IMG/VR virus record: IMGVR_UViG_3300037067_017580
Location: 1 to 64,000 of that record
Source: a virus
Taxonomy: Duplodnaviria; Caudoviricetes
DNA: 64,000 nucleotides
Strand: one strand, 5' to 3'
Position numbers and translations under genes: made by a program
The notes under the pieces: model-generated
What the model was told of the DNA's origin: nothing
Seen by the model: only the letters and a program-made list of their open reading frames with translations
The model's database searches: none
Shown: in pieces, positions 4,351 to 63,928 of the stretch
Position numbering within the stretch: the stretch's first letter is position 1
Layout of the letters: each line of letters opens with the position of its first letter

Positions 4351-4560
4351 TCTTGACAATTAGTAAAATAGTCAACTACTCCTCGCTGAAGCAAAGGAGC
4401 TTGCAGAAAAATAGCAAACTTTCTACGATTGGCCTGTTGACGATGGCCTGCCAATTAGGTTTAATTTGCCATCGAGTGGCTCACTAAACGAAATCGGGAG
4501 TTTATCATTAGTTTTCGAGTAACGTTGAGTAATGTTTATCGCAGCATTCCAGTCTGCATC
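4351..4560 (-). ncRNA. Predicted TnpB omega/reRNA (scaffold plus guide; 5' limit approximate)
   Basis: Minus strand after the tnpB stop reads CAAGCTCCTTTGCTTCAGCGAGGAGTAGTTGAC, an IS200/605 right-end hairpin, followed by flank TATTTTACTAATTGTCAAGA. Confidence 0.55.
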
Positions 4561-5679
4561 AAAAACTTTGCCATCACTCGCGAAATAACGACAACCTTGG
4601 CGTTTACCCTTTTCTAAACCTCTGTAGTCGTCGCGAGAGGTCATGTAGGGGCTAACCGTTTCTACCCTTTTACCCAAGGATAGTGCCTTGTATGCCAGAA
4701 TGGCGCGGAACATAAAATAAGGGACTTGAGAATTTCGGTTATTGAAAGATTTGCGCATTTTACCTTTTTTATTCTGTTTAAGGTTTGTCAAATCTTCCAT
4801 AACAATAACATCTGTGGTGGTTTTAAGAATTTTATTTGCTATTTGGTGACACATTTGTTTATTTTTGTTAGTTTGCTTTTTTCGGATATTTTTTAACCTT
4901 GTTTTTGCCGAATGGGAGTGTTTTGCTTTAGATTGAAGTTGCCGTTTTATAAATCGTAACTTACGCATTTCATCAGCAAACTTTTTATTTTTAAAAGCGT
5001 CACCCTCGCTGGTTGTAACAAAACGCTTAATTCCCATGTCTAAGCCGATACATCTTTTTTCAACATGGAGAGGAACGGGAAGTTCAAAAGGAATTGAAAG
5101 ATATAGTTGTCCATCTTTTTCAAAGATTTTAGGGTCGCACATTCGGTAACTTTTGAACATTTCTTCAAGTCGTGGATAAAGGAGTATTTTAAAGCGTTTT
5201 CTGCCGTCGATTGTGGTCATACTGAACTCGTTGGTGTCAGTCATGCGGAAAATCCGCGCGTCAAGCTGAACCGAAAGTTTTTTCTTAATAGGAGCAGCTT
5301 CTAAGGTTTTAAGCTTTCTATTTGATTTTATGGAACGAAACGCTGACAAAACCGCCTGTTCTGCCTTTATTACAAGCTGAGAATTTGCACTTGGGTATTT
5401 TTTTCTCATATTATAGTAATGTACTTTGTGAAAATCTTTAGTTGAGGGAACCTTATTGCTAGTTCTTGCTTTTTCAAAAAGACACAGCGATAGGTCGTTC
5501 CAAATTTGATCGTGAAGCTTCATAGTTTGGACTGCAAAAACGGTAGATTCTGCGTCACTGATTATTTTTGTGTTATATGTTAAAATATTTTTAGGCACAT
5601 CCATTATTTTTGTTCTCATACTTGAATATACACAATTTTTATGTTTTTTTTTAGAAGCTTCTTGACTTTTTTAAAAATT
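4371..5679 (-). mobile_element. TnpB-only IS200/IS605-family (IS1341-like) element; left boundary inferred
   Basis: Antisense tnpB inside a + strand region; clear right end GTCAAC at 4371; no tnpA; no clear left-end hairpin. Confidence 0.55.
4423..5619 (-). CDS. tnpB: TnpB RNA-guided endonuclease
   Basis: RuvC motifs IGLDMG, VMEDL and DADWNAAINI all intact; 398 aa; Zn-finger Cys largely lost. Confidence 0.9.
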   Translation of the reverse strand: MRTKIMDVPKNILTYNTKIISDAESTVFAVQTMKLHDQIWNDLSLCLFEKARTSNKVPSTKDFHKVHYYNMRKKYPSANSQLVIKAEQAVLSAFRSIKSNRKLKTLEAAPIKKKLSVQLDARIFRMTDTNEFSMTTIDGRKRFKILLYPRLEEMFKSYRMCDPKIFEKDGQLYLSIPFELPVPLHVEKRCIGLDMGIKRFVTTSEGDAFKNKKFADEMRKLRFIKRQLQSKAKHSHSAKTRLKNIRKKQTNKNKQMCHQIANKILKTTTDVIVMEDLTNLKQNKKGKMRKSFNNRNSQVPYFMFRAILAYKALSLGKRVETVSPYMTSRDDYRGLEKGKRQGCRYFASDGKVFDADWNAAINITQRYSKTNDKLPISFSEPLDGKLNLIGRPSSTGQS

Positions 5680-14229: not shown

Positions 14230-15348
14230 ATGTATATTCACCCGGCGCGGCTCTACGATTATCAAACAATTTACGATAATTTACAGCTTGAAATCGCAAA
14301 TAAAAACGTCTCTGTCTCAAAAATGGGGGATTTAGAGCTATATCACTACACAAATAAATGTACATACGACCATGCGTGGAATGTCTGGACTAAAATGGCG
14401 CGGGGCTTAATTTTAGATGTTGTAGAAAAAAGGGTTGTAGCAACTCCATTTGAGAAGTTTTTTAATTATGGAGAACTAGGGAATTTCGATTTACCGAATG
14501 AACCATTCTCAGCGTTTGAGAAACTTGATGGGTCGATGATTATATGTTTTTGGTATAAAGATCGTTGGATTTTAACCACTAAAGGTTCTTTTTATTCAGA
14601 ACAAGGTAAATGGGCAACTGAAAAATTCAAAGAATATGATGAAGAAGCCCTTGTTAAAGGGACAACATATATTTTTGAAGCCATATATAAAGCAAACCAA
14701 ATTGTTGTTTCATATAATTATGAGGGGCTGGTTATTCTTTCATGCTTTAGCGAAAATGGGACAGAAACTGGGTATAACCATCTTCCGGCGTTGTCTCATA
14801 TTATAGAATGTAAAGATGCTATTTCTTATTCTTTTAATAATATAGAAGAGATAATAAACGCCGCAAAAATCCTTGATAAAAACAACGAAGGATTTGTCGT
14901 CCGTTTTGAAAACGGTTATCGCATTAAAATAAAAGGTGAGGAATATAAGCGCATACATAAAATTGTGTCAAATATTACTCCAATAGCGATATGGGAAGCA
15001 ATGTTGGCCAAAGATAACCTATTAGAAATTCGCAAACAAATTCCAGAAGAGTTTTATAAAGATTTTGATAAAATTCGTGATTTATTGTCAGAAAAAATGC
15101 AAGATTTGTTAATGGAAATCGGAATATGGGGGCTAAAAACAAAAGATTTGTCAAATAAAGAACTTGGGCTGGACGAATCTGTGCCGAAAGACATCAAGGG
15201 ATTTATTTTCGCCGCTAGAAACAACAAAAGTATTATTACTGATAAAAAACAAAGAGAATCATTTTTTCGCAAATTTAGACCAGATGGGAATATTCTAGAA
15301 GGTTATTCCGCAAGTACACATCTTTTAGGGTTGAAGGATGAAATATGA
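14230..15348 (+). CDS. T4 Rnl1-type RNA ligase
   Basis: ARGLILD, PFEKFFN, motif I FEKLDGS, TKGSF, IFEAI, EGFVV, IKIKGEEY. Confidence 0.88.
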   Translation: MYIHPARLYDYQTIYDNLQLEIANKNVSVSKMGDLELYHYTNKCTYDHAWNVWTKMARGLILDVVEKRVVATPFEKFFNYGELGNFDLPNEPFSAFEKLDGSMIICFWYKDRWILTTKGSFYSEQGKWATEKFKEYDEEALVKGTTYIFEAIYKANQIVVSYNYEGLVILSCFSENGTETGYNHLPALSHIIECKDAISYSFNNIEEIINAAKILDKNNEGFVVRFENGYRIKIKGEEYKRIHKIVSNITPIAIWEAMLAKDNLLEIRKQIPEEFYKDFDKIRDLLSEKMQDLLMEIGIWGLKTKDLSNKELGLDESVPKDIKGFIFAARNNKSIITDKKQRESFFRKFRPDGNILEGYSASTHLLGLKDEI

Positions 15349-16319
15349 AGCTTGAAAACATTGGATTTTATACACTATCAGACGACAGGGCGAATTCTTC
15401 CTCAATCTTTTCGCCCTTGCAAAGATGCGAACTAATCTTGGGCGGCAGATGTAATTTTAAATGTCCCTATTGCCGTGGGCTTAGACCTGACTTTTCTAAA
15501 GATATGACAGAAGAAGAGGCTCTTTCTGTCCTTGAAATATGGTGTCAAAATAGACTAAAAAATGTACGGTTTTCTGGTGGCGAGCCAACCATCTACAAAT
15601 ATTTAGGTAATCTAGTTTCGTTTTGTAAAGGAAATCAAGTAGAAAGAATCGCAATTTCAACCAATGGAAGCGCAGATATCTCGTTATATGAAGATTTATT
15701 TAACAGAGGGGTAAACGACTTTTCTATCTCTTTAGATTCTGGCTGTTGCTCTATTGGCGATAAAATGGCCGGAGGGGTTAGTGGGGCTTGGGAAAGAGTA
15801 ATTGAAACAATTAAATATCTTAGCAAAAGAACATATGTTACAGTGGGCATGGTTTTTACAGAAGAAAATATCAACCAGTGTTTGGAGTATGTTTTATTCG
15901 CTGATTCTCTTGGTGTTTCTGATATTAGAGTAATTCCTTCTGCTCAGTACAATAAAGCTCTTTCTATTTTAACCAAACTGCCAGAAGAAATTTTAAACAA
16001 GCATAAAATTCTAAAATATAGAATTAACAACATAAACAGCGGAAAACACGTTAGAGGGTTACAAAAGAACGACTGTAATCGGTGTTGGCTTGGCCTTGAC
16101 GATATGGTTTGTGTCGGAGGATATCATTTTCCGTGCATTATTCACATGAGGGAAGGCGGCGATCCTATTGGGAAAATTGGTCAAGATATTAGAACACAGA
16201 GAGAAAGCTGGGTTAAGAACCATAATTGTCAAACTGATCCAATTTGTATTAAAAACTGTTTAGATGTTTGCCGGGATTATAATAATAAATATGAAGAATT
16301 ACACGATAAAACATCTTGA
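15345..16319 (+). CDS. Radical SAM protein with Cys-rich C-terminal (twitch/SPASM-like) domain
   Basis: CNFKCPYC, SGGEPT, STNG, SISLD; ATGA-coupled to the ligase. Confidence 0.88.
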   Translation: MKLENIGFYTLSDDRANSSSIFSPLQRCELILGGRCNFKCPYCRGLRPDFSKDMTEEEALSVLEIWCQNRLKNVRFSGGEPTIYKYLGNLVSFCKGNQVERIAISTNGSADISLYEDLFNRGVNDFSISLDSGCCSIGDKMAGGVSGAWERVIETIKYLSKRTYVTVGMVFTEENINQCLEYVLFADSLGVSDIRVIPSAQYNKALSILTKLPEEILNKHKILKYRINNINSGKHVRGLQKNDCNRCWLGLDDMVCVGGYHFPCIIHMREGGDPIGKIGQDIRTQRESWVKNHNCQTDPICIKNCLDVCRDYNNKYEELHDKTS

Positions 16320-16951: not shown

Positions 16952-17385
16952 AATATATTAAAAAACTCTATTATAATATCAAAAACCGCTTGCGGCTATC
17001 AAACCATCTTCCATCGGGCTTCCCTGCTGGAGAATATTATGAGCCGTGCGACCTAATCCCGGCTGTTCTTTTACAGGCGGTTGAAGATTTTGTTGCCAGA
17101 GACAAACAAGACGGGCTAAAATGGTTTAGTGACAGCGAATATCGTGAAAATATAATTGAAATTTTGCATTTTAAAATTATAGAACTTCCATTATTGGAAA
17201 AAGAATTTGACGACAAAGTTACGATTCTTTATGGGGGAATGCGGCTTGAAGATTTAAATACAAAAAGAACTCTTGATTGGGAAATTGGAAATTTAACTCT
17301 TAACACCGTAGAATCAAAAATAAATAGGCGCAAAAAAGAAATTCTTCATATAATTATTGATATTTATCCTTATTTATGGAGTTAG
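16945..17385 (+). CDS. Hypothetical protein
   Basis: Overlapping packing, 146 aa. Confidence 0.7.
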   Translation: MLKYIKKLYYNIKNRLRLSNHLPSGFPAGEYYEPCDLIPAVLLQAVEDFVARDKQDGLKWFSDSEYRENIIEILHFKIIELPLLEKEFDDKVTILYGGMRLEDLNTKRTLDWEIGNLTLNTVESKINRRKKEILHIIIDIYPYLWS

Positions 17386-17391
17386 ACCATT

Positions 17392-17784
17392 ATGAAAATT
17401 GAACCAATTAGTGAATTTGAAACAAAAAACAATATTAGATTCCATTGCTACCAACAACGACCAGAAGATTTTAAACCTGGGGCGATTTTAAAGATAAGAA
17501 ACTATAATTATGAAAAAGACAGATATTTTAAAGCAGATACGGTTGATAAGGCTGGAAAAAGTTGTAGAGATTATCTAAAAAGTATATTGCCATATATTGA
17601 TGCGGAGTTAAACAGACAAATAGACATAAAAATGCCAAAATATTTAATAAAACCAACTCAAAACATGATAAATAAAATACAAAAAATTATCAAAAATAAT
17701 AGTAATAAATCTATTAATTTTGCATTTAAAAACACAGTAGATATTGGAACAAAAGAAATCGTCCTTATATATCTGGAGGAATAA
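17392..17784 (+). CDS. Hypothetical protein
   Basis: GGAG RBS, 130 aa. Confidence 0.65.
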   Translation: MKIEPISEFETKNNIRFHCYQQRPEDFKPGAILKIRNYNYEKDRYFKADTVDKAGKSCRDYLKSILPYIDAELNRQIDIKMPKYLIKPTQNMINKIQKIIKNNSNKSINFAFKNTVDIGTKEIVLIYLEE

Positions 17785-17913
17785 AAATGAGAACAGCAAA
17801 AAAAGAATGGTTGTTAAAAGTAATTGATCTTTTGTATAATACATGTATTGATCAAGGAGGTTTTAACTGCTTATGAAAATCCAACAAAATCAAAAGAAAT
17901 CGGTTAAAATCAC

Positions 17914-17942
17914 TTGCTTTTTAACCCTAAATGTAGTATATT
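17914..17942 (+). promoter_or_regulatory. Element-internal promoter, 17-bp spacer
   Basis: TTGCTT-N17-TATATT followed by AAGGAG RBS. Confidence 0.55.
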
Positions 17943-17955
17943 TAAGGAGTGAAAG

Positions 17956-18126
17956 ATGAAAGTCATAAAGGTAACGAAAGAGTATTTCCAGACAGAGGAC
18001 GAGAAGGTTTATTTCTTCGAGCCTTTGGAAAAAGAAATATCCGTTGAGGATATGCAGAAGATTGTGGACGCAAACGAAAAATTAGTTAAGGAGTTGGAAG
18101 ATGGAACACGTACCATTTCCAAATAA
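17956..18126 (+). CDS. 56-aa ORF at the start of the IS607-type element
   Basis: AAGGAG RBS; MKVIKVTKEYFQTEDEKVYFFEPLEKEISVEDMQKIV...; missing from the track. Confidence 0.75.
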   Translation: MKVIKVTKEYFQTEDEKVYFFEPLEKEISVEDMQKIVDANEKLVKELEDGTRTISK

Positions 18127-18646
18127 GAAGTATCAAATTATCTATGCTGATCCACCTTGGAGTTATAACGACAAAATGGCTGGACATAGTTTTAGCTTAG
18201 ACCACGAATATGAAACACAGAGTAAACAGTGGATAAGTCAATTACCCGTAGGTGAATTAGCAGAAAAAGATGCCTGTTTATTTTTATGGGTAACAAGTCC
18301 ACTACTTGATGAAGGTATAAAAGTTTTAGAAGATTGGGGGTTTAAGTATAAAACAATAGCGTTTGTTTGGAGTAAATACACTAAAAACGGAATATTGGTC
18401 AGTAATTTAGGAAGGTGGACAATGGGCAATGTGGAGCTTTGTCTGCTTGGTATAAAAGGTAAGCCGAATAGCTGGAGAGTTGATAAAAGCATAAAACAAC
18501 TTGTTCAGGCAGAGAGAACAAAGCACAGCAAAAAACCACAAGAAGTTAGAGACAGAATAATAAAACTTTTGGGGGATAGAAGCAGAATAGAATTATTTGC
18601 TCGGCAAAAGACAGACGGTTGGGATGTTTGGGGTAATGAAGTATGA
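18101..18646 (+). CDS. MT-A70 family N6-adenine methyltransferase
   Basis: IIYADPPW; LFLWVT; WGFKYKT; ELCLLG; HSKKP; ELFAR..WDVWGNE. Confidence 0.92.
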   Translation: MEHVPFPNKKYQIIYADPPWSYNDKMAGHSFSLDHEYETQSKQWISQLPVGELAEKDACLFLWVTSPLLDEGIKVLEDWGFKYKTIAFVWSKYTKNGILVSNLGRWTMGNVELCLLGIKGKPNSWRVDKSIKQLVQAERTKHSKKPQEVRDRIIKLLGDRSRIELFARQKTDGWDVWGNEV

Positions 18647-19260
18647 AAATCTATAAAATCACAGAAGCAAGCGAATATCTTGGGGTATCAATCAACACGC
18701 TCAAGACGCTTGCCAACAATGGAAAGATAAAGTCTTTCAAGACTACTGGTGGGCATAGGCGTTTCCGTCAGGAAGACTTAGACGCTTATATGGGAGTTGA
18801 GAAAGAAAAACAAGAAAAGTTGACTGTGATTTATGCGAGATGTTCAACCGCAAAGCAGAAAGAAAACCTTGAACGGCAAAAAGACAGGTTGAGAAAACAC
18901 GCAGAAGCCAAAGGTTATAAGTATGTTTTGATTGATGAGATTGCCAGCGGAATAAACGAGAAGCGAAACGGCATACACAAGTTAATCAAAATGTGTTTTG
19001 AAGGTAAAGTTGAACGAGTTCTGATTGAATACAAAGATAGACTTGCCAGATTTGGTTATGAATATCTTGATGCCATATTTACCAATCTTGAAATCACAGT
19101 TGAAATAATGGAAGTGAAAAACAAGAAATACGAAGAAGAATTGGCAGAGGATATTATGAAAATTCTCACTTGCTATTCGGCAAGATATTACGGTGCAAGA
19201 GGTGGTAGAAAGAAGAAAATTAAGGTTGAAAATGAACCAGTCGAATCTAATGGAATTTGA
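18643..19260 (+). CDS. tnpA: IS607-family TnpA (MerR-like HTH plus serine recombinase)
   Basis: EASEYLGVS..TGGHRRF; IYARCST (catalytic Ser); DRLARFGY; EELAED. Confidence 0.95.
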   Translation: MKIYKITEASEYLGVSINTLKTLANNGKIKSFKTTGGHRRFRQEDLDAYMGVEKEKQEKLTVIYARCSTAKQKENLERQKDRLRKHAEAKGYKYVLIDEIASGINEKRNGIHKLIKMCFEGKVERVLIEYKDRLARFGYEYLDAIFTNLEITVEIMEVKNKKYEEELAEDIMKILTCYSARYYGARGGRKKKIKVENEPVESNGI

Positions 19261-19501
19261 AAAGGAGGAGATGGAGGGTGTGTTTTGTGTTTAAAAAAAT
19301 ATACAATTAAAGAAATATTACCCTTAGTTGAAGAATATAATTCAAAATTAAAGTTTAAATTTGAAATAAAAACAGAAAAAGGAACAATAGATTGGGGAGA
19401 AAACCAAGAATGGATAGTAATAGCAGATGAAAGCACTCCTCTTTCTGCCGCAACAATAGAATGGGCTGATATTTATATAAAAATTTAATAAGGAATTTTA
19501 T

Positions 19502-19696
19502 ATGCGTAGCAAAACACCAGAATTTGGAACCAAAAGAATTAAAAAGTGGTTTGCATTTTTTCCAGTTAAAATACTTTATGATGGGATAATGGAAAAGCGC
19601 TGGCTTGAAACAGTAATGGTCGAACAAGTATTTTTTAAATATTTTCCCTTCGGAAGTGGCTGGACAAACAACAGGTTTATAGATGAGGAGAAGTAA
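19502..19696 (+). CDS. Hypothetical phage protein (FAFFPV..RWLE)
   Basis: AAGGA RBS. Confidence 0.7.
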   Translation: MRSKTPEFGTKRIKKWFAFFPVKILYDGIMEKRWLETVMVEQVFFKYFPFGSGWTNNRFIDEEK

Positions 19697-20062
19697 ATGG
19701 ACATAAAAACAATCACATCTATAAAGCTAAAAGAAAAGTCTGAAAATATAGAATATCTTTCTATCCTTAATTTTATCTTAGCTTTTATAAGTGCTTTTTG
19801 TGGAATTTTTTGCGCATATGTTGGGTTTGACTGGTTGGCAGCAATTCCATTACTTGTCTCTATATTTTTTCTAATAAGCTCAATGTTTCTGGTATATAAA
19901 TCTTCTGTATTGTTTGGAGAAAAAATGGATAGAATTTCTAGTGTTCCATATAAAAAGTTGCTTTTAGCACTTAAAAACGACAAAGAAAATGGATACTGGG
20001 ATGTTTTAGAGTGCGAAGAATGTCATTTCCCCGGAGATTGTCTTTTATGTGGAGCTAAATAA
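19697..20062 (+). CDS. Membrane protein with C-terminal Cys cluster
   Basis: Two hydrophobic helices; CEECHFPGDCLLC. Confidence 0.7.
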   Translation: MDIKTITSIKLKEKSENIEYLSILNFILAFISAFCGIFCAYVGFDWLAAIPLLVSIFFLISSMFLVYKSSVLFGEKMDRISSVPYKKLLLALKNDKENGYWDVLECEECHFPGDCLLCGAK

Positions 20063-20063
20063 A

Positions 20064-20279
20064 ATGAAAATTAAAAAAATAATTAGTCAAGACAGAAGAG
20101 ATTTTACTGCTATTTATGAGTGTGAACACTGTGGAGCCACTGAAGAAGGATATGGCTACGACGATAAAAATTTCCATAATAATGTTATTCCCAAAATTGC
20201 CTGTAAAAAATGTGGTAAAATAGCACCAGAAGAATATCGATCACTTACTACAAAATACGAAGAATGGGAAAGTGTATGA
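20064..20279 (+). CDS. Small Zn-finger protein
   Basis: CEHCG...CKKCG. Confidence 0.7.
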   Translation: MKIKKIISQDRRDFTAIYECEHCGATEEGYGYDDKNFHNNVIPKIACKKCGKIAPEEYRSLTTKYEEWESV

Positions 20280-20872
20280 AAAATATAGGTGTTGACCTAG
20301 ACGGCTGTGTCTATGATTTTGGCTCTAAGTTCTTAGCAATGCTTAATCTGCGGCTTGGAACCAATTATGGTTATTATGACCAAACCCATTGGTTTTATGA
20401 AGAATCTTTGGGCATTGATAAAAAAATCACCGAAGAAGTGTTTAAGTGTTTCGTTGACAACAAAATGTATCAATCTCTTGATATTTATCCATACGCACAA
20501 GAGGGGCTTTGTCTATTAGAGTCGCAGGGCTATCATATCCATTACATAACATCTCGCCCACATGAAGGAATTAGGCCAACCTTGAAGAAAATTTTAAGTG
20601 ATGGTTTACCTATGACAGGCATATATTTCTGTAACACCGACGAAGAAAAGATAAAATATTCAAAAAATAATGATATTTCTCTTGTAATTGAAGATAAACC
20701 GAGTATAATAGACCTATATATGAAGAACGGAATAAAGGTTATAAAAATAGAGCACCCATATAATAAAGAAATAAAAGCAACTAAAAGATTAGATGGTGGC
20801 CCACGATCAGCATCAGCACACTGGGAAAATATCCCTATTGTTATTGAAAAAATATTTAAAGAAAGCACCTAA
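20276..20872 (+). CDS. HAD-superfamily 5'(3')-nucleotidase-like protein
   Basis: IGVDLDG, ITSR, K, IEDKP. Confidence 0.85.
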   Translation: MKNIGVDLDGCVYDFGSKFLAMLNLRLGTNYGYYDQTHWFYEESLGIDKKITEEVFKCFVDNKMYQSLDIYPYAQEGLCLLESQGYHIHYITSRPHEGIRPTLKKILSDGLPMTGIYFCNTDEEKIKYSKNNDISLVIEDKPSIIDLYMKNGIKVIKIEHPYNKEIKATKRLDGGPRSASAHWENIPIVIEKIFKEST

Positions 20873-33309: not shown

Positions 33310-34578
33310 CTAAGAAGATAGTTTGTCGGCTAAATCAATCAATATGTCTCGAAAATAATTAAATATTTCAAAATTAACTCCATTTTTGTCACATCCCCAC
33401 GAAAATGGAGAACATGAAAAATAAAATCCACCATCATTGATTAAATTTGTAGTTGGTAAATTAAACTCTGTTTTGCAATATTTCTTAAAAAATGGCTGTT
33501 TTGTTATATTACCCGAAATAATTGGCCTAGTTTGTATCCCTTTTTCTTCTAATTCTTTTACTGTTTCGTTTTTAACTCTTTCGCTTTTACAAACAATAGG
33601 AAAACAAAACGCAGAAATATCTAATTTTCTATTAATATATTGTTCATAAAATTTAGGATATATAAATTCGGTAAAGCGATATGGAATACTTTGGCTCATA
33701 AACTCATAAAAAACACCATTTCTATCGCTAATTGTCTCGTCTATTATTTTAAGTTGTTCCTGACACAAAAATGCCGTAATCTCTGTTGGGCGAAGGTTAA
33801 ATCCGATATCGAAGAAAGTAAAATCTGTTTCATCTGGATCTATTTTAGCACAAGAACATAATTTGTCAAGTGTTTTTTTATCTAAATCACGCCCCCAGCC
33901 ATTAGAACGGACAATTTTTAACATATCATAGAGCTTTTTATCACCGGTCAGAACCGCCCCGCCCTCAATTGTGCTCATTTGGTGAGAAACATAAAAAGAA
34001 AGTGTACCTGCCAATCCAAAAGTACCTAAATATTTGTTATTATATTTCGCGCCAAGGCTTTCACAGTTATCTTCTAGCAAAATAATATCATTTTCAGAAC
34101 AAAACTTGGCTATTTGTTCGATATCGTTACACACACCAAGCGCATTTGTAATAAAAAGAACCTTGAATCCATATTTATTATAAGCGGCTCTTATGGCACC
34201 AACCCCTATATTAAAACTAAACGGCTCACAATCAATCGCAATAGGGTTCAAATCCATTTGGATAATAGGAGATACATTGGTAGACCAAGTTAGAGAAGAA
34301 AAGCCTACGTTGTCACCAGATTTGATTTTTCCAAGGTTTTTTAACGCCTGTAAGAGCGCAAAATTGGCTGAACCACCACTATTGAACAAAACAGCATGTT
34401 TTGAACCAAACTTTTTAGACAAAGCCGCCTCGCATTTTATACATTCTCCGTTCATGCTTAGACGGTCTGTATTTTTAATAAATTCAGCAAGTTTTTCACG
34501 TAAATCAACTTTGCTTTCAAATGTATCATAGACAAGAGGTATCTTATATTTATTTGACATTTTTATTTTTTTTACCAT
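33310..34578 (-). CDS. colD: PLP-dependent DegT-family enzyme, ColD-like GDP-4-keto-6-deoxymannose 3-dehydratase
   Basis: NSGGSAN, LTWST, EDNCESLGA, SFYVSHQMSTIEGG (His at the usual PLP Lys position), GFNLRP. Confidence 0.75.
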   Translation of the reverse strand: MVKKIKMSNKYKIPLVYDTFESKVDLREKLAEFIKNTDRLSMNGECIKCEAALSKKFGSKHAVLFNSGGSANFALLQALKNLGKIKSGDNVGFSSLTWSTNVSPIIQMDLNPIAIDCEPFSFNIGVGAIRAAYNKYGFKVLFITNALGVCNDIEQIAKFCSENDIILLEDNCESLGAKYNNKYLGTFGLAGTLSFYVSHQMSTIEGGAVLTGDKKLYDMLKIVRSNGWGRDLDKKTLDKLCSCAKIDPDETDFTFFDIGFNLRPTEITAFLCQEQLKIIDETISDRNGVFYEFMSQSIPYRFTEFIYPKFYEQYINRKLDISAFCFPIVCKSERVKNETVKELEEKGIQTRPIISGNITKQPFFKKYCKTEFNLPTTNLINDGGFYFSCSPFSWGCDKNGVNFEIFNYFRDILIDLADKLSS

Positions 34579-52865: not shown

Positions 52866-53953
52866 AGAATTTCGCCAAATAATTTAGAGAACTCTTTACT
52901 GATGGTTGCCAATGAATATTCTTCCAATAAAATATTATTAATCTTAACAGGACTTTTTGTTAAATACACTCTTCTCATTGCTTCGACTGCCTCTAAAATA
53001 TTAGGATTTTGCCAAACCTGTGAAGAATTATATAAGTATGGGCGGGGAGAATCTGCCAAGCAAGGAGCAAAGTTTTCTTTCAAAACATTATATTTTTTAG
53101 GCCAATTACATGCAAAATACAAATAATCATTTCCATAACAATTAGAAGTAATAATATCTTTGCCCATCACAGCAGCATCAAACATTGGCAAATTCCATGA
53201 CTCACCGTGGCTTAGAGAAACATAAGTATCACATGTTTTAATAACATTTTCTACATGTTCTTCTGATAATTCTCCATGTGTGAACAGAACCTTAGGATAA
53301 TTTTTAAGCTTCATTTTAGTTTTTAGCGTTTTTACTTTTTCAGCAAACTCATTCGCCCCAGCACTATCAGTTGCCAAGTGTAAAGACAAAATAACATTTT
53401 CATTATCCTGAAATGCAATAAAATATGCCATTACAATAGAAAATATGTTTTTTCTCTCATTTAGCGTGGAAACGCTTGCAAAAACGTGTGTATCTTTATC
53501 GGTAAGTTGCGACTTAAAATCGTACTGTTTTTCTTCTATCTCTTGAGAAAATCCACAAAAAGGAATAGGAATTTTATAAGATTTTGTTATTTCAGACAAT
53601 CTTTCATGCTCAAACTTATTTGCAACTATTCCAAAATCATAATAACTTTTTATATTATTAACCCAAGGCTCTGGCAGTGGATCCGCTTCCCAATAAAACA
53701 AGCATCCAGTTTTGGAATTAATTTTAGCATCGCAATAATCTGGAAGAGTATTTACAATTGTTAAATCTACATTTTGTACATCTTTTTTCTCTTCTTCTAA
53801 AAAATCAATACAGCCATTGTCACCGCCAAAAGAAACATTTCTAACAACTAAATCAATATCTGCACAAGTTTTAATGGCTTTAATGTATCTACGAGATGCT
53901 GTTCCATATCCGGTATTTTCTTTATAGTTTGAAATAAATAATACTTTTTTCAT
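52862..53953 (-). CDS. GT4-like glycosyltransferase
   Basis: GYGTASR, WEAD, RKN, SHGESWNLPMFDAAVMG. Confidence 0.85.
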   Translation of the reverse strand: MKKVLFISNYKENTGYGTASRRYIKAIKTCADIDLVVRNVSFGGDNGCIDFLEEEKKDVQNVDLTIVNTLPDYCDAKINSKTGCLFYWEADPLPEPWVNNIKSYYDFGIVANKFEHERLSEITKSYKIPIPFCGFSQEIEEKQYDFKSQLTDKDTHVFASVSTLNERKNIFSIVMAYFIAFQDNENVILSLHLATDSAGANEFAEKVKTLKTKMKLKNYPKVLFTHGELSEEHVENVIKTCDTYVSLSHGESWNLPMFDAAVMGKDIITSNCYGNDYLYFACNWPKKYNVLKENFAPCLADSPRPYLYNSSQVWQNPNILEAVEAMRRVYLTKSPVKINNILLEEYSLATISKEFSKLFGEIL

Positions 53954-55617
53954 CAGATTACCCCAAAAGTGTCATTTTTGACAGATTTTACATATCCTAC
54001 TCGTTTTTTCTCAAAGAAATTATATTTTTCAATAAAAGATTTAAATAACGCAGTTAAATGATTTGGCCCAAAAGCTGATCTACTATATCCGTCTATTAAA
54101 CAAACTCCAGAATTTATTGATTCTATTATTTCTCTAGTCTTGAATTCTGTAAAATATGGATGTTTTGTTATATTATTTATAATCCATTCAGCCGCCTCGG
54201 CATAATTATTTCCAATTTCTGCTGGAACCTTAATATCTTCCTTCATAAAACATGGAGAATCATTCCATCCAGGCAAACCAGAAATATCTATTTCGTCAAA
54301 AGCCCTTTCCCATATTTTAGCAGTATTTTCCCAAGTGAAAACTTCATCTGCACACTTTTTTGCCTCATCGCATTTTGATTGATACATCCCTGTTGGCATT
54401 GTAAGAACTTCATAAATCTTTTTAGCAAGACCGGAACGACTAAAATAGGCCCTCTTTTGCATCGTGTCGGCTTCTGTTGCCATTCTTTCTATCGGAACAA
54501 TAAATCCTCCCCTATGTCTACCGTCTGGCGCTATTTCTTCACCTTGCTCTTGTGTAGCCGAATATGGAACCGCAATAACCGGGACGCCAACCTTTTTAAA
54601 TTCAGAAAGCGGCATTCCCCATCCCTCTCCAATGCTCATAAGAACGCCAAGATCGGCAAGTTTCATTATTGCGCCAAGTTCTTTTCGTTTGATCCCATTA
54701 TTAACACTGGTCATTGTCATAGATTTGTTTTTACACTTGCTACATTCGCATACTATCTTGTTTAAACGGCTAATAGCAACCGATTTACACTTATTACAAA
54801 CATAGGTCGTTAAAATTCTATCAGCATAACCAGAATTTAAAATAGCCTGTGGCAAATCCCACCCGCGATCAGGATTTGAGGTATGAACATAAAAATAAAC
54901 GTTATCGGCAAGCTTTTTGTTCTTTTCTTTGTATTTATTGATAAAAACTGATAAAGTTTCAAGAAAATCAGGGAACAATTTACGCATCTGATTACGAGCG
55001 ACCATCATAACAATTTTCATATCTTGCGGAATGCCAAACATTTTACGAAGCTCTTCTTTAGACTCTGTTGGGCAAAACTCATCTTCAACGCCCGGAGACG
55101 CAACTAAAACATTGTTAATTTTGCCGTTAGACTCTTTTTCTAATGTTTCTTTACCAAAATAACTATATGCGAGAACCTTGTCGCAAGAAGAATATGTATC
55201 AATCCAATTTGGCCGCTGTGGACAACTATCTACGGTTGGCATCCAAATAAATTTAAAAAATCTACGATAAGGGCTTTTAGAAATATATGAGCTATACCAG
55301 TGGTCGAAAATACTCATAACAATATTTGGTTTAAAGTCTAGGCAAGCATCTTCAAACTTAAATGTTCCAAACTGAGCTTCTCCATTTTTAGAATAGAGAT
55401 CTTGATATTGTTTATCTTCTCGACTTGGCATTACCGGATAAACTTTCCAATCTTTCTCATAAATTCTTGGGTCATCCGGACTTGCATAGTTAGCAAATTC
55501 AGATATTTCATATTTACCAGTCTTGTTTAATCTTTCTAATACATTCTTATAATAAATAGCGAATCCAGAACTTAAAGAAGTAAATTCACTATGAACTAAT
55601 ATTCGTTTTTTTGCCAA
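53953..55617 (-). CDS. Large GT4-like glycosyltransferase with inserted CxxC...CxxC
   Basis: SGFA, VARNQMRK, CNKC..CSKC, SIGEGWGMPLSE...GVPVI. Confidence 0.88.
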   Translation of the reverse strand: MAKKRILVHSEFTSLSSGFAIYYKNVLERLNKTGKYEISEFANYASPDDPRIYEKDWKVYPVMPSREDKQYQDLYSKNGEAQFGTFKFEDACLDFKPNIVMSIFDHWYSSYISKSPYRRFFKFIWMPTVDSCPQRPNWIDTYSSCDKVLAYSYFGKETLEKESNGKINNVLVASPGVEDEFCPTESKEELRKMFGIPQDMKIVMMVARNQMRKLFPDFLETLSVFINKYKEKNKKLADNVYFYVHTSNPDRGWDLPQAILNSGYADRILTTYVCNKCKSVAISRLNKIVCECSKCKNKSMTMTSVNNGIKRKELGAIMKLADLGVLMSIGEGWGMPLSEFKKVGVPVIAVPYSATQEQGEEIAPDGRHRGGFIVPIERMATEADTMQKRAYFSRSGLAKKIYEVLTMPTGMYQSKCDEAKKCADEVFTWENTAKIWERAFDEIDISGLPGWNDSPCFMKEDIKVPAEIGNNYAEAAEWIINNITKHPYFTEFKTREIIESINSGVCLIDGYSRSAFGPNHLTALFKSFIEKYNFFEKKRVGYVKSVKNDTFGVI

Positions 55618-60072: not shown

Positions 60073-61578
60073 TTAAAAAATACTCTTTATATCATTTACA
60101 AAGAAGCAGTCCTTCTCCAGTTTTTTATATCCTCTAATAATTACCACTTCTGAACATTCTTTTTGAAGCAAAAACCTATCATTCCGAGCCTTGTCTAGTG
60201 CTTTTTGAAAAACAAGACCATTTTCGATACATCCGCTTGAGTCGCTAAATGAAATGTTCGCCATGTCTTCGCCACGTTTTGTCTTTTTGATTTTTATCTT
60301 CTCAATAATCGCGCAAACTTCAAAATTTCCTTCATCGGCCTCTACGATATCAGCACATTTATTTTTTGCCACCTTACCAAAATCATTAACCCTATTACTG
60401 GTAAGATTTATGCCAAAATACGCTCTCTCGTTAATGTCTTTAAACAAGTTGCTATCATTGTATTCATTTTTTACAAGCTTATCACACAATAAAAGAACTT
60501 CTTCTGATGGTTTTAGACGTTTCTGATCTTGAAAAATAGACAAAACAAGTGCCGACAACGACTTATACTGGACTCCCGGATTTATGTCAATAAACTCAAA
60601 CATTTTCTTTTGTTGTGCCGTAGACAATTCTTTTAATAATTTGTATTCTTCCATCATTTTTGTACGAGGAGTATTATATTCATCTAAAACACCAGCCAAA
60701 ATAGCCGCCTCAACCTTAGCACTATTTGTCCCTTGTCTAGCGGCTTCGATTAAAAAATCTCTCCATGTTTTACACTCAGTAAGTTTTGATAAGGCTTTAT
60801 ATCCGGTTTCGCCCATTCGTTTTACGTGATTTATGCCAAAAGATATTTCATTTTCTCCCATTATTTCAAAATCTTTATGCAAATCAAGAATCTTTGGAGG
60901 CAAAAGTTTTATATCAAAATATTTCATATCATAATAAAGTTGGCAAATCTCTTCCATCGGATCTTGTTTCATTCTGGCACACTGAAGCAAACCAAGGAAA
61001 AATGCCACTGGATAATGTGTTTTTAAATATGCTGATTTATACATATTGATTGCATAAGAATAAGAGTGTGCCTTGTTAAACGAATAATTTCCTGATTCAA
61101 TAATAATATCCATTAAATGTTCGGCATCTTCTTTTTTAACACCATTTTTAACACAGCCGTCAACAAATTTTGGCCGCAATGACTTCATCTTATCCATGTC
61201 TTTTTTGCCAATAGCTTTTCTTAATCCATCTGCTTCAATTTCTGTAAACCCTCCAAGAACTTCTGCAATTTTAATTGTCTGTTCTTGATAAAGAATAATT
61301 CCATTTGTCGGACTTAGAACTGTTTCAAGCCGCTTATCAATATAAGAAACTTCTTTCTCTTTATTTCTAACCGCAATATATTCATCTGCCTGTTGAAGAG
61401 CACCGGGGCGAATAATCGCAATAACGTCTGAAAGATCAGATATATTTCTAGGCTTAATCATTTTAATATAATGCTGGCACAAAGACGATTCAGCCTGAAA
61501 AATACCCTTGGTCTTTCCTTCACTAATTAATTCATATGTTTCTTTATCGTCTAATGGAATATTGTCAAGATTAAACAA
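60073..61578 (-). CDS. dnaE: DNA polymerase III alpha, C-terminal chain (fingers, HhH, OB)
   Basis: IPLDD..Y, GIFQAES, IRPG, GIILYQEQ, LRKAIGKK, YSFNKAH, YLKTHYP, C-terminal OB; TTG start. Confidence 0.93.
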   Translation of the reverse strand: MFNLDNIPLDDKETYELISEGKTKGIFQAESSLCQHYIKMIKPRNISDLSDVIAIIRPGALQQADEYIAVRNKEKEVSYIDKRLETVLSPTNGIILYQEQTIKIAEVLGGFTEIEADGLRKAIGKKDMDKMKSLRPKFVDGCVKNGVKKEDAEHLMDIIIESGNYSFNKAHSYSYAINMYKSAYLKTHYPVAFFLGLLQCARMKQDPMEEICQLYYDMKYFDIKLLPPKILDLHKDFEIMGENEISFGINHVKRMGETGYKALSKLTECKTWRDFLIEAARQGTNSAKVEAAILAGVLDEYNTPRTKMMEEYKLLKELSTAQQKKMFEFIDINPGVQYKSLSALVLSIFQDQKRLKPSEEVLLLCDKLVKNEYNDSNLFKDINERAYFGINLTSNRVNDFGKVAKNKCADIVEADEGNFEVCAIIEKIKIKKTKRGEDMANISFSDSSGCIENGLVFQKALDKARNDRFLLQKECSEVVIIRGYKKLEKDCFFVNDIKSIF

Positions 61579-61579
61579 A

Positions 61580-63928
61580 TTATTTACTTCCTAGAGTGAT
61601 TTTTCCATTTTCAAATTTACCATACTTAACAGCGTGATTCATAATATCTGTCTTTGGCTTTCCAATCTCCTTGGGATTAATTTTATAAATATCTCCAGTT
61701 TCTTTTATTAGGGCAATAATATTATAATCAGCACCATCATCCATATAATACTTAATATAAGAAACCACTGTTAGATATTTAATTACTTCTGGAGTTCTTG
61801 TATGTTCTCCATAATCAAATAATTTGTAAATATCATCAAGAATAAGAGAACATGTAGTTCCTTTCGCATTAGCAAACTTTACATACTCGCAATCTTTTTT
61901 CTTAATAATATCAAGTTTTTCATGTTTGAATTTGCTAAGAAAATCTACAAAACATTCTGAACTAAATTCCATTTTTTTCTCCTGTATAAAATTAACTGGC
62001 ACATCCTGTATTTCATCAATAAGTGTTTCTTCTACTATTTCTCCCGTTATCGACTCTTTTGGATAATATAAAACATCTTTCTTTGGGATATATTTTAATG
62101 GCTTTATCTTCCGTCGATTTATCTCTCTCTGTACTATATCAAAAACCGAGAGCAATTTCAAGCCCAAAATATCTATTTTTACGCAAAAACATTCAGAATC
62201 TTTCATATCGAAGGCACAAACAAGACTTTTACTTTTGGCATCCCATTCCAGCGGCAAGTATTCATCCACATCTGTTGAAGAAATAAGAACGCCAGCGGCA
62301 TGAATACCTTTGTTTCTTACCGTTCCCTCAATAGCCTTGGCAAGCTCTATCTCTTTCTTGTATGGTTCAAAAGCCGTTCTAAACTCTTCTGAAATATCTA
62401 GTGCGCCCTGAATGGTGTTTTCTGTGTCGTCATCATGCTTTATTTCTTGATCGGGGAACATTTTAGTCAATACGTTTGACTGCTCAAAAGGGACTCCACA
62501 AACCCTAAAAGTGTCTTTAATAGCCGATTTTGGCTTGAGTTCTCCAAATGTACTAATGGGAAGAACTTTATTATCACCCCATTTTTCTTTAAGATGCTTA
62601 ATAACATCATCTTTTATGTCGGCACTAACGTCTAAATCTACGTCGGGGAGAGAAATATGTCCCTCTGATAAACGACCAGTATTAAAGAATCTTTGAAAAG
62701 ACAACTGTGTTTCTATAGGGTCAATACGTGTTATCCCTAGTAAATACGAAACCAAGCTGCCTGCTGCGCTACCACGACCAACTCCGGGAATACTTCCTGC
62801 CTTCTTTACAAAGTCAACAATGTCTAAAAGAAGAGCGAAATATGCATTAAGAGTTGTTCCGCTTACTTTTGCATTCTTAAATGTTTCATACTCAAAGTTT
62901 AATCTATCAATATACTCTTTATCTTTATGTTTTTTAAGTTCTTTAAGTTTTATCAAACATAGATCATACACGTACTCGTCAACATTTGTATATTTTTCTG
63001 GAACAACGATTTGTGGAATCTTAGGAGAACCAAGCTCTATCTCATAATTTTCTACTTTTTCTGACATTAAAAACGTATTATTTATTTCTTCTTGCGCAAA
63101 TTTCTCAAACATTTCCTCATAGCTATGCATATAATATTGAGAATTATCAGAAAAAAGAATATCTTCGCCGGAAGCTTTTCTATTCGCCCGTTCTGCCAAG
63201 GTGGTTTTTGTCTGTGTACAAATCATTACTTCATGTGCAATTGCGTCTTCTGGTCGGCTAAAATGTGAGTCACAACTCGCACAGAGAGGAATTCCAGTCT
63301 GTTTCGATATCTCTCTAAAACATGACAAAACTACTACTTGCGCCGGATGACCTTCAATCATTGCTTCAAGATAAAAATCATCTCCAAATATGCTCTTCCA
63401 CCTATTTGCTTCTAGACACCCAGCTTCTAACCAGTTATCTTTTAAAAACTTACGACAATTTTCTTCATCTATTTGTGAAAATGCTTCCTTATAATTAGTA
63501 AATAATTCAGTAGACACCCTCCCTATGATGCAGGCTCCGCAAGCAATAATGTTCTTATTTTTTGCTACTTCGGCAATTTTATCAAAGGTAAGACGGGGTT
63601 TAAAATAGAAGTTTTTTGCTGCAAAATTATTTAATTTTATTAAATCTTTATATCCGTTATAGTTTTTTGCAATAATAATAATGTGGTTATTGCTTCTTTC
63701 TCCTTCGACCTCGTTGCCAAGATAAAACTCGCAACCAATCATCGGCTTAATATTTTTTTCTTTACAGGCACGATAAAACTTGATAATTCCAGATAAAGAA
63801 CCATGATCGGAAATTCCAACTGTCTTCATGCCAAGTTCAACAGCGCGAGAAACAATATCTTTTGGGGATTGTAGTCCGTCTAAGATACTATAATATGAGT
63901 GGTTATGAAATAAAGTAAAATTATTCAT
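61580..63928 (-). CDS. dnaE: DNA polymerase III alpha, N-terminal chain (PHP plus palm) with about 170-aa C-terminal extension
   Basis: HNHSYYSILDG, ISDHG, GRGSAAGSLVSY, PDVDLD, HAAG, KIDILGL. Confidence 0.93.
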   Translation of the reverse strand: MNNFTLFHNHSYYSILDGLQSPKDIVSRAVELGMKTVGISDHGSLSGIIKFYRACKEKNIKPMIGCEFYLGNEVEGERSNNHIIIIAKNYNGYKDLIKLNNFAAKNFYFKPRLTFDKIAEVAKNKNIIACGACIIGRVSTELFTNYKEAFSQIDEENCRKFLKDNWLEAGCLEANRWKSIFGDDFYLEAMIEGHPAQVVVLSCFREISKQTGIPLCASCDSHFSRPEDAIAHEVMICTQTKTTLAERANRKASGEDILFSDNSQYYMHSYEEMFEKFAQEEINNTFLMSEKVENYEIELGSPKIPQIVVPEKYTNVDEYVYDLCLIKLKELKKHKDKEYIDRLNFEYETFKNAKVSGTTLNAYFALLLDIVDFVKKAGSIPGVGRGSAAGSLVSYLLGITRIDPIETQLSFQRFFNTGRLSEGHISLPDVDLDVSADIKDDVIKHLKEKWGDNKVLPISTFGELKPKSAIKDTFRVCGVPFEQSNVLTKMFPDQEIKHDDDTENTIQGALDISEEFRTAFEPYKKEIELAKAIEGTVRNKGIHAAGVLISSTDVDEYLPLEWDAKSKSLVCAFDMKDSECFCVKIDILGLKLLSVFDIVQREINRRKIKPLKYIPKKDVLYYPKESITGEIVEETLIDEIQDVPVNFIQEKKMEFSSECFVDFLSKFKHEKLDIIKKKDCEYVKFANAKGTTCSLILDDIYKLFDYGEHTRTPEVIKYLTVVSYIKYYMDDGADYNIIALIKETGDIYKINPKEIGKPKTDIMNHAVKYGKFENGKITLGSK

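Follow-up and report, generated by a model that had tools for sequence, protein, structure and literature searches.

The DNA analyzed here, referred to as the window, is a stretch of 64,000 nucleotides (nt) from a Caudoviricetes phage, covering positions 1 to 64,000 of the IMG/VR virus record IMGVR_UViG_3300037067_017580, which spans 76.9 kb at an estimated completeness of ~45%. A single copy of a compact element of 1,408 bp occurs in the window, located at ~17858-19265 or 17861-19268. This copy is very probably a TnpB-less transposon of the IS607 family that inhabits phage genomes, combines a fixed frame with one swappable cargo slot, and moves by the mechanism proposed below. The following features were placed at the locus, where ORF denotes an open reading frame and RBS a ribosome-binding site:

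17787 to 17860, plus strand: 5' stub of a phage ORF, ~25 codons, with a strong RBS (GGAGG, 7 nt, ATG) directly behind the stop of the upstream gene
17854 to 17860, plus strand: left AAGGAGG copy with two candidate crossover GG dinucleotides, 17856-57 and 17859-60
17858 to 17912, plus strand: element left end, consisting of AGG, TTnT, the invariant AACTGCTT (17865-17872), and then four AAATC repeats (17877-17911)
17914 to 17942, plus strand: internal sigma-70-like promoter, TTGCTT (17914-19), 17 nt, TATATT (17937-42)
17956 to 18126, plus strand: conserved ORF of 56 amino acids (aa), whose 3' end bears the cargo RBS (AAGGAG) and overlaps the cargo start by 26 nt
18101 to 18646, plus strand: cargo, MT-A70-family DNA methyltransferase of 181 aa with a DPPW motif, its stop overlapping the tnpA start (ATGA) by 4 nt
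18643 to 19260, plus strand: tnpA, IS607-family serine transposase of 205 aa with an N-terminal MerR-like helix-turn-helix (HTH) domain and a C-terminal resolvase catalytic domain, Ser68
19234 to 19268, plus strand: element right end, with GAACC, GAATC, and GAATT (GAAyy repeats at 10-bp spacing) followed by AAAAGGAGG, including the right AAGGAGG
19269 to 19488, plus strand: 3' part of the interrupted phage ORF, alternatively 67 aa from TTG 19285 behind GGAGGG

The sequence AAGGAGG stands at both junctions (17854-17860 and 19262-19268), and the register of the ends is ambiguous because the target itself was apparently GGAGG, which makes bases of target and element indistinguishable at the left junction. 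A first-pass annotation made from the letters of the window had reported both copies, the 97-aa ORF that is obtained in frame by deleting 17861..19268, and an insert composed of a promoter-like site with a 17-nt spacer, a 56-aa ORF, a DPPW MT-A70 methyltransferase, and an IS607 TnpA in tight overlap without tnpB. All of these were found in the sequence as described. The tnpA stop codon lies 8 nt from the element end, which leaves no space for tnpB.

In the related elements described below, the left-end consensus reads (GG)AGGTTnTAACTGCTT followed by four AAATC repeats, and the right-end consensus reads ...GTCGAATCTAATGGAATTTrAAAAGG(AGG). The four AAATC repeats of the window are spaced by exactly 10 bp and stand 17-51 bp inside the end; the array is unique in the 64-kb window, was matched in 0 of 100 shuffles, and is kept across the family. 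The promoter-like site is also conserved across the family, in many members as TTGACT-17-TATATT, although in a consensus promoter scan of the window the internal promoter fell below threshold, its -35 hexamer fitting at only 3 of 6 positions. The search for inverted repeats gave no pair linking one end of the element to the other, and Rfam had no match on it. The first 20 nt of tnpA, 18643-18662 (ATGAAAATCTATAAAATCA), resemble the left-end repeat region at 17873-17892 (ATGAAAATCCAACAAAATCA), which may reflect an autoregulatory operator or the remnant of an ancestral left end situated directly before tnpA. The idea that this 5' end (ATGAAAATCTATAAAATCA) serves as the inner end of a minimal element that captures cargo by insertion behind it was rejected, as the bases preceding the tnpA ATG never form GG.

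The 205-aa product of tnpA matched Pfam HTH_17/MerR over residues 4-50 and Resolvase over residues 62-181, and it scored 187 bits against the NCBIfam IS607 family transposase equivalog NF033518, for which the cut-off is 110. The motif YARCSTAKQ (Y64-A-R-C-S68-T-A-K-Q) with the nucleophile Ser68, as well as R125, R133, and R136, was invariant in 34 family members. Among GenBank phage records, the best identity to this TnpA was below 37%. For IS1535 and IS607, GG termini and GG targets have been described, with no duplication and no terminal inverted repeats, and in this family the binding of TnpA is nucleated by four phased 9-bp motifs located 20-60 bp from the left terminus; tnpB is usually found downstream of tnpA and is dispensable for transposition (PMC6188088). 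The AAATC array, the GG junctions, and the lack of inverted repeats match this published description of the ends, and by its sequence the element appears to have every feature that defines the family, apart from the usual tnpB, of which none was found inside the element in any fetched relative with both ends placed.

Compared with classical insertion sequences of this family (IS607, IS1535, and ISC1926; PMC6188088, PMC4058570), the likeness extends to the serine transposase with its N-terminal MerR-like HTH, the GG at termini and target without target duplication or terminal inverted repeats, the left end with four short direct repeats in helical phase 20-60 bp from the terminus, and presumably the sufficiency of tnpA alone for movement. 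The window element differs in having neither tnpB nor space for a guide RNA, and in the stretch separating its left end from tnpA, which contains a promoter, the conserved 56-aa ORF, and a cargo gene. Its phage family strongly prefers GGAGG, whereas IS607 shows only (G)GG, and has so far been seen only in uncultured phage contigs and in contigs of metagenome-assembled genomes (MAGs). A 398-aa TnpB-like ORF, matching Pfam OrfB_IS605 and Cas12f1-like TNB and the PHROG annotation ‘transposase’, does occur in the window at 4423-5619 on the minus strand, distant from the TnpB-less element.

A search of viral contigs with TnpA identified relatives of 77-99% protein identity on at least 120 contigs, of which 80 were fetched. 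In nearly every locus, blastn similarity to the window started at 17854-17857 and stopped at 19266-19269 with unrelated flanks on both sides, and the family-wide coincidence of end points at exactly these two positions is far beyond chance. Among the fetched loci, 58 right flanks were distinct, and both junctions could be placed for 39 different sites; the same ends were seen in more than 40 elements at differing sites. Element lengths ranged from 1,310 to 2,483 bp. The G+C content of the elements was confined to 0.32-0.41, and that of their flanks varied from 0.26 to 0.69; the same AT-rich unit therefore resides in very different phages. In collections with one genome per species, the family was found only on MAG contigs, from many phyla, and never in isolate genomes. 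In Logan contigs of four metagenome runs, the left and right modules were covered 10-100 times as deeply as the flanks and the MT-A70 gene, and in one soil run both modules were abundant with the window phage absent. The conserved modules of 250-600 bp break metagenome assemblies, and many loci end inside them.

Some family members depart from the common arrangement. At L012:3272-3320, about 50 bp of the left module with the promoter and two AAATC repeats are missing, and the 56-aa ORF, the MT-A70 gene, and tnpA are kept. In a D12-cargo member on a 236-kb phage contig (L065:4580-5507), tnpA is interrupted close to its 3' end by a LAGLIDADG ORF of 303 aa, beyond which the final 81 nt of the element follow; the insert matched no group I intron model and nothing in Rfam. 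At both ends of contig IMGVR_UViG_3300010429_001276 (L070/L071), a block of at least 4.1 kb recurs with 99.95% identity; it stops precisely where a divergent family member has its right end, and the sequence beyond differs. Two copies of a far larger element could account for this, or else an assembly repeat.

The mode of insertion is best seen in a sister element with an SspD-like cargo (L053/L055). Its empty-site form had been predicted beforehand from the junctions and was then found in seven contigs that are 99% identical in both flanks and hold the uninterrupted site, ...GAAGG|ACCTAAGTAATG. The occupied form reads ...GAAGG|AGGTTGTAAC... at the left and ...AAAAAGG|ACCTAAGTAATG at the right. 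These forms show a scar-free insertion at GG, with no duplication, in the RBS of a 497-aa gene, and that RBS is rebuilt. Contigs neighbouring L036, L052, and L004 yielded occupied forms only. Across the family, right ends reading GGACC, GGAAA, or GGATG were always paired with a left GGAGG, and a left CGAGG was paired with a right GGAGG, so that the joined ends would read AAAGG-AGGTT with crossover possible at either GG. The 39 two-sided sites comprised 24 GGAGG targets, 13 targets fitting one or the other GG, and two odd ones (37 of 39 being compatible with crossover at the two GGs), compared with a share of 1.9% for GGAGG among the GG dinucleotides in the flanks. A start codon followed 3-12 nt past the element end in 29 of the 58 right flanks, the corresponding shares being 15% at random GG and 34% at random GGAGG. 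Since the empty and occupied forms of the sister element and the junctions show crossover at GG, the 7-bp repeat of the window appears to reflect identity of the target with the joined ends (AAAGG+AGGTT) rather than a target duplication.

The same junctions bear on the question of whether TnpA moves the unit at all. An accessory cassette could instead be spread by homologous recombination or homing, with the recombinase serving resolution or inversion; the modules clearly recombine. Homologous recombination, however, requires flanking similarity, and none is present: the boundaries agree to the base pair between loci whose flanks are unrelated and differ widely in G+C, GG stands at every junction, and a scar-free empty site exists. 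The ends also have IS607 architecture and the protein passes the IS607 equivalog model, which together make the cassette account very improbable. The compact IS607-derived mobile unit proposed by the first-pass annotation is borne out by the conserved ends at more than 40 sites and by the scar-free empty site of the sister element.

The frame consists of a fixed left module (the end, four AAATC repeats, promoter, and 56-aa ORF) and a fixed right module (tnpA and the end), with the slot in between. In most members the slot holds exactly one ORF, and in a few it holds several. In every cargo class, similarity between elements ends at the cargo start codon and resumes exactly at the tnpA ATG; the cargo RBS AAGGAG is located within the 3' end of the 56-aa ORF, and the cargo stop either overlaps the tnpA ATG (ATGA) or falls in the following 14 nt. 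At least 11 unrelated cargo classes were found in the slot, nearly all members examined carrying a DNA-modifying enzyme, and at least eight families of such enzymes are carried by the frame. The classes include:

N6_N4 methyltransferase (PF01555)
MT-A70 (PF05063)
C5 cytosine methyltransferase (PF00145)
D12 adenine methyltransferase (PF02086)
T1-type Dam (PF05869)
PHROG-757 methyltransferase
Mom (PF25680 at 3e-33, locus L018)
PAPS-reductase-fold proteins, which match SspD and BrxP
a few ORFs without an assigned family

The cargo of the window matched PF05063 at 4.7e-29 over the whole profile, contains IIYADPPW in its translation, and matched a Type II methyltransferase model of PADLOC at 2.5e-62; it is a predicted adenine methyltransferase.

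Copies with other cargo, for which the first-pass annotation had suggested a search, were found among the relatives, and the expectation of swappable cargo upstream of tnpA held for at least 11 unrelated ones. That the cargo takes the place of TnpB was correct with regard to the exchangeable cargo and the missing tnpB, but not with regard to position, as the cargo precedes tnpA and does not occupy the former tnpB position. Compared with elements holding other cargo, the left module of the window was 93-97% identical and tnpA 87-95%, whereas its MT-A70 gene shared only ~65% identity with other MT-A70 cargos. When 42 elements representing 11 cargo classes were placed on a tnpA tree, at least 25 cargo changes were counted versus 27.0 ± 1.7 for shuffled labels. 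As the label changes are close to the shuffled expectation, cargo appears to be essentially uncoupled from the tnpA tree.

Two loci, L033 and L034, share tnpA and 4.6 kb of right flank at 99.98% identity and differ in everything left of the tnpA ATG, with an MT-A70 gene facing five small unknown ORFs, left modules that are 76% identical, and different left flanks. At L079:2201-4515, the slot is filled by three ORFs, of which one encodes an unknown protein of 108 aa, one is an MT-A70 gene, and one encodes a 196-aa protein with a NUMOD3 motif that may be a homing-endonuclease-like passenger.

The arrangement resembles mobile integron gene cassettes in that a conserved platform provides the promoter and promoter-less single ORFs of unrelated families are interchangeable in one slot. 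It differs in the lack of attC sites and of a tyrosine integrase, in the transposition of the whole platform, and in the route of exchange, which here probably proceeds via homologous recombination in the flanking modules. The resemblance is thus an analogy and not membership.

The protein encoded by the 56-aa ORF has 11 residues that are invariant across members down to 45% identity, and its confident AlphaFold model (predicted local distance difference test, pLDDT, 88.5) shows three short strands and a 25-residue helix. The ORF matched no Pfam, NCBIfam, or PHROG family and gave no tblastn match in GenBank phages; Foldseek against PDB returned nothing below E = 5, a wide VIA-align search reached a best Z of 3.1, and Atlas gave unnamed clusters only. 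A profile search collected 273 representative clusters, nearly all of small proteins. Three distant relatives that were examined lie directly upstream of N6_N4, MT-A70, and D12 methyltransferases, at loci that have a broken TnpA or none and show no recognisable left end. Because these relatives precede methyltransferases without an intact TnpA, a role tied to cargo expression is favoured over that of a recombination directionality factor. Of the two functions first suggested for this ORF, conserved accessory protein or directionality factor, the conservation was upheld, and the setting of the relatives points to cargo expression.

The com-mom operon of phage Mu offers a parallel: a modification gene has its start overlapped by a small ORF that may regulate translation of the gene, and the product of that ORF, Com, is a zinc-finger protein. 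The likeness lies in the small ORF overlapping the start of a modification gene and in Mom itself being a cargo class (L018). Unlike Com, the 56-aa protein is without cysteines and has no detectable similarity to it, which limits the comparison to an analogy.

In the window, deletion of 17861..19268 joins codon 25 (GG+A) to the frame at 19270 and gives ...IDQGG|DGGCVLCLKKY..., which runs to the stop at 19488 for a total of 97 aa. In-frame reconstruction of such a target gene is plausible, since without it a genuine gene start would lead to a product of just 29 aa. The arithmetic of the first-pass annotation was right, and the reconstructed gene itself is a prediction. Megablast of 17000-20300 against GenBank phages gave no match, viral contigs yielded no relatives of the 3' half-ORF, and a search of 5.8 billion proteins with it returned only the same 67-aa protein, whose two contigs were both occupied. 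The upstream 130-aa gene had no relatives either. Neither the empty nor the circle junction of the window, proposed as a check, was recovered from relatives or metagenome contigs: the exact predicted empty junction GATCAAGGAGGAGATGGAGGG had no match in metagenome contigs, and Logan contigs of four runs over 17000-20300 contained no 17860>19269 joint and no clean circle joint, although contigs drop rare forms. One odd joint, 19268>18037 with 18 extra letters, was seen in the Logan contigs.

The element may alternatively have hit an intergenic GGAGG without splitting any gene, the 29-aa stub and the 67-aa ORF from TTG 19285 being separate or meaningless and their fusion coincidental. About half of the family insertions are at RBSs before genes, GGAGGG stands 6 nt before TTG 19285, and gene callers give the 67-aa product; the chance of an open in-frame fusion alone is ~1 in 4, with no homologues for comparison. 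On the other hand, the strong RBS and ATG of the stub right behind the upstream stop are typical of a gene start in a tightly packed array, the stub would encode only 29 aa without the fusion, and about half of the family sites are not before a start codon. An insertion that split no gene is accordingly considered rather unlikely.

Taken as a TnpB-less IS607-family transposon, the element would operate as follows. The AAATC repeats would be the binding sites of TnpA, which would excise the unit as a circle with the junction AAAGG-AGGTT (predicted junction AAAGGAGGTT; wider ...GGAATTTGAAAAGGAGGTTTTAACTGCTT...). The circle would recombine with GGAGG-like sites, mostly RBSs just upstream of phage genes, and the right end would rebuild the RBS that the element hit. 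The promoter and the 56-aa ORF would drive and translationally couple whichever cargo is present, and tnpA, which has no conserved RBS of its own, would be translated by coupling to the cargo stop. Cargo would be swapped through homologous recombination between conserved modules during co-infection and would modify the phage DNA, shielding it against restriction. In the window phage, the unit would have landed on a GGAGG inside a small ORF, where it appears to be fixed.

Several points weigh against the transposon reading. Its support is comparative throughout, with transposition, methylation, and expression of the element deduced from sequence and the anti-restriction role from the enzyme families alone. 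Chimeric contig joins could inflate the apparent shuffling of cargo and tnpA, since the modules fragment assemblies, and the L033/L034 pair could be an exchange at the tnpA start or an assembly chimera. The exact abutment of at least 11 unrelated ORFs on the tnpA ATG is left without explanation. Furthermore, the same insertion was present in contigs from groundwater runs, landfill runs, and an ENA assembly, and with this recurrence in three data sets and no empty or circle junction, the window copy may be fixed or inactive.

Pressed further, these last observations would make the window copy a fixed, immobile relic, a resident methyltransferase operon of the phage whose family was once mobile. 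The same two junctions in all three data sets and the missing empty and circle junctions are in line with it, as are decayed copies elsewhere, namely a tnpA frameshift in L083, a split tnpA in L023, and broken or absent tnpA in L104-L106. All three ORFs and both ends of the window copy are intact, however, and its TnpA is 99% identical in protein (tnpA 95% in DNA) to that of L003, an unrelated phage with other cargo, which indicates recent spread. Contigs, moreover, cannot reveal rare excision products. A relic is thus possible but seems the less probable state of this copy.

More tentatively, the transposon can be read as a specialised shuttle for DNA-modification genes, in which GGAGG/RBS targeting and rebuilding, cargo-coupled translation of tnpA, and Com-like control by the 56-aa protein act together. 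It is likewise no more than possible that these three built-in features have not been described for any insertion sequence. If this reading were true, targeting and rebuilding of the RBS would render insertions in phage gene arrays nearly harmless, coupling of tnpA to an intact cargo ORF would tie mobility to a working payload, and the element would be a main route for the acquisition and exchange of orphan methyltransferases, Mom, and phosphorothioation-type enzymes among phages of anaerobic habitats. In the literature covered, to which ISfinder/TnPedia and most subscription journals did not belong, no paper described this TnpB-less IS607 arrangement with one slot. The insert of promoter, 56-aa ORF, and cargo before tnpA, the exact one-ORF slot, the GGAGG preference, and the phage habitat set the element apart from the IS607 family, and the set of elements to which it belongs is apparently undescribed.

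Other genes of the phage include those for a DNA polymerase, a clamp loader, and an RNA ligase. Two adjacent ORFs on the minus strand, 60073-61578 and 61580-63928, match a single phage DNA polymerase family (phrog_405), the first in its C-terminal and the second in its N-terminal part; the gene is split, or read through a stop or frameshift, at ~61579. By PHROG matches, a radical SAM protein (15345-16319, plus strand), an aminotransferase (33310-34578, minus strand), and a glycosyltransferase-like protein (53953-55617, minus strand) are also encoded, and these genes may form a nucleotide or DNA modification pathway of the phage's own.

Phages often carry orphan DNA methyltransferases and other modifying enzymes that defeat restriction, and the movement of these genes between unrelated phages is poorly understood. 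A frame with at least eight enzyme families represents a concrete vehicle for the traffic of modification genes among phages; in several metagenomes it was 10-100 times more abundant than any single host phage, and the G+C of its host contigs ranged from 26% to 69%. The 56-aa family, with its 273 representative clusters, adds a new small protein linked to methyltransferases, and with its scar-free RBS insertion and exact one-ORF slot, the 1.3-kb frame could become a gene-placement tool for phage genomes. As a whole, the family suggests how phages acquire and exchange anti-restriction genes.

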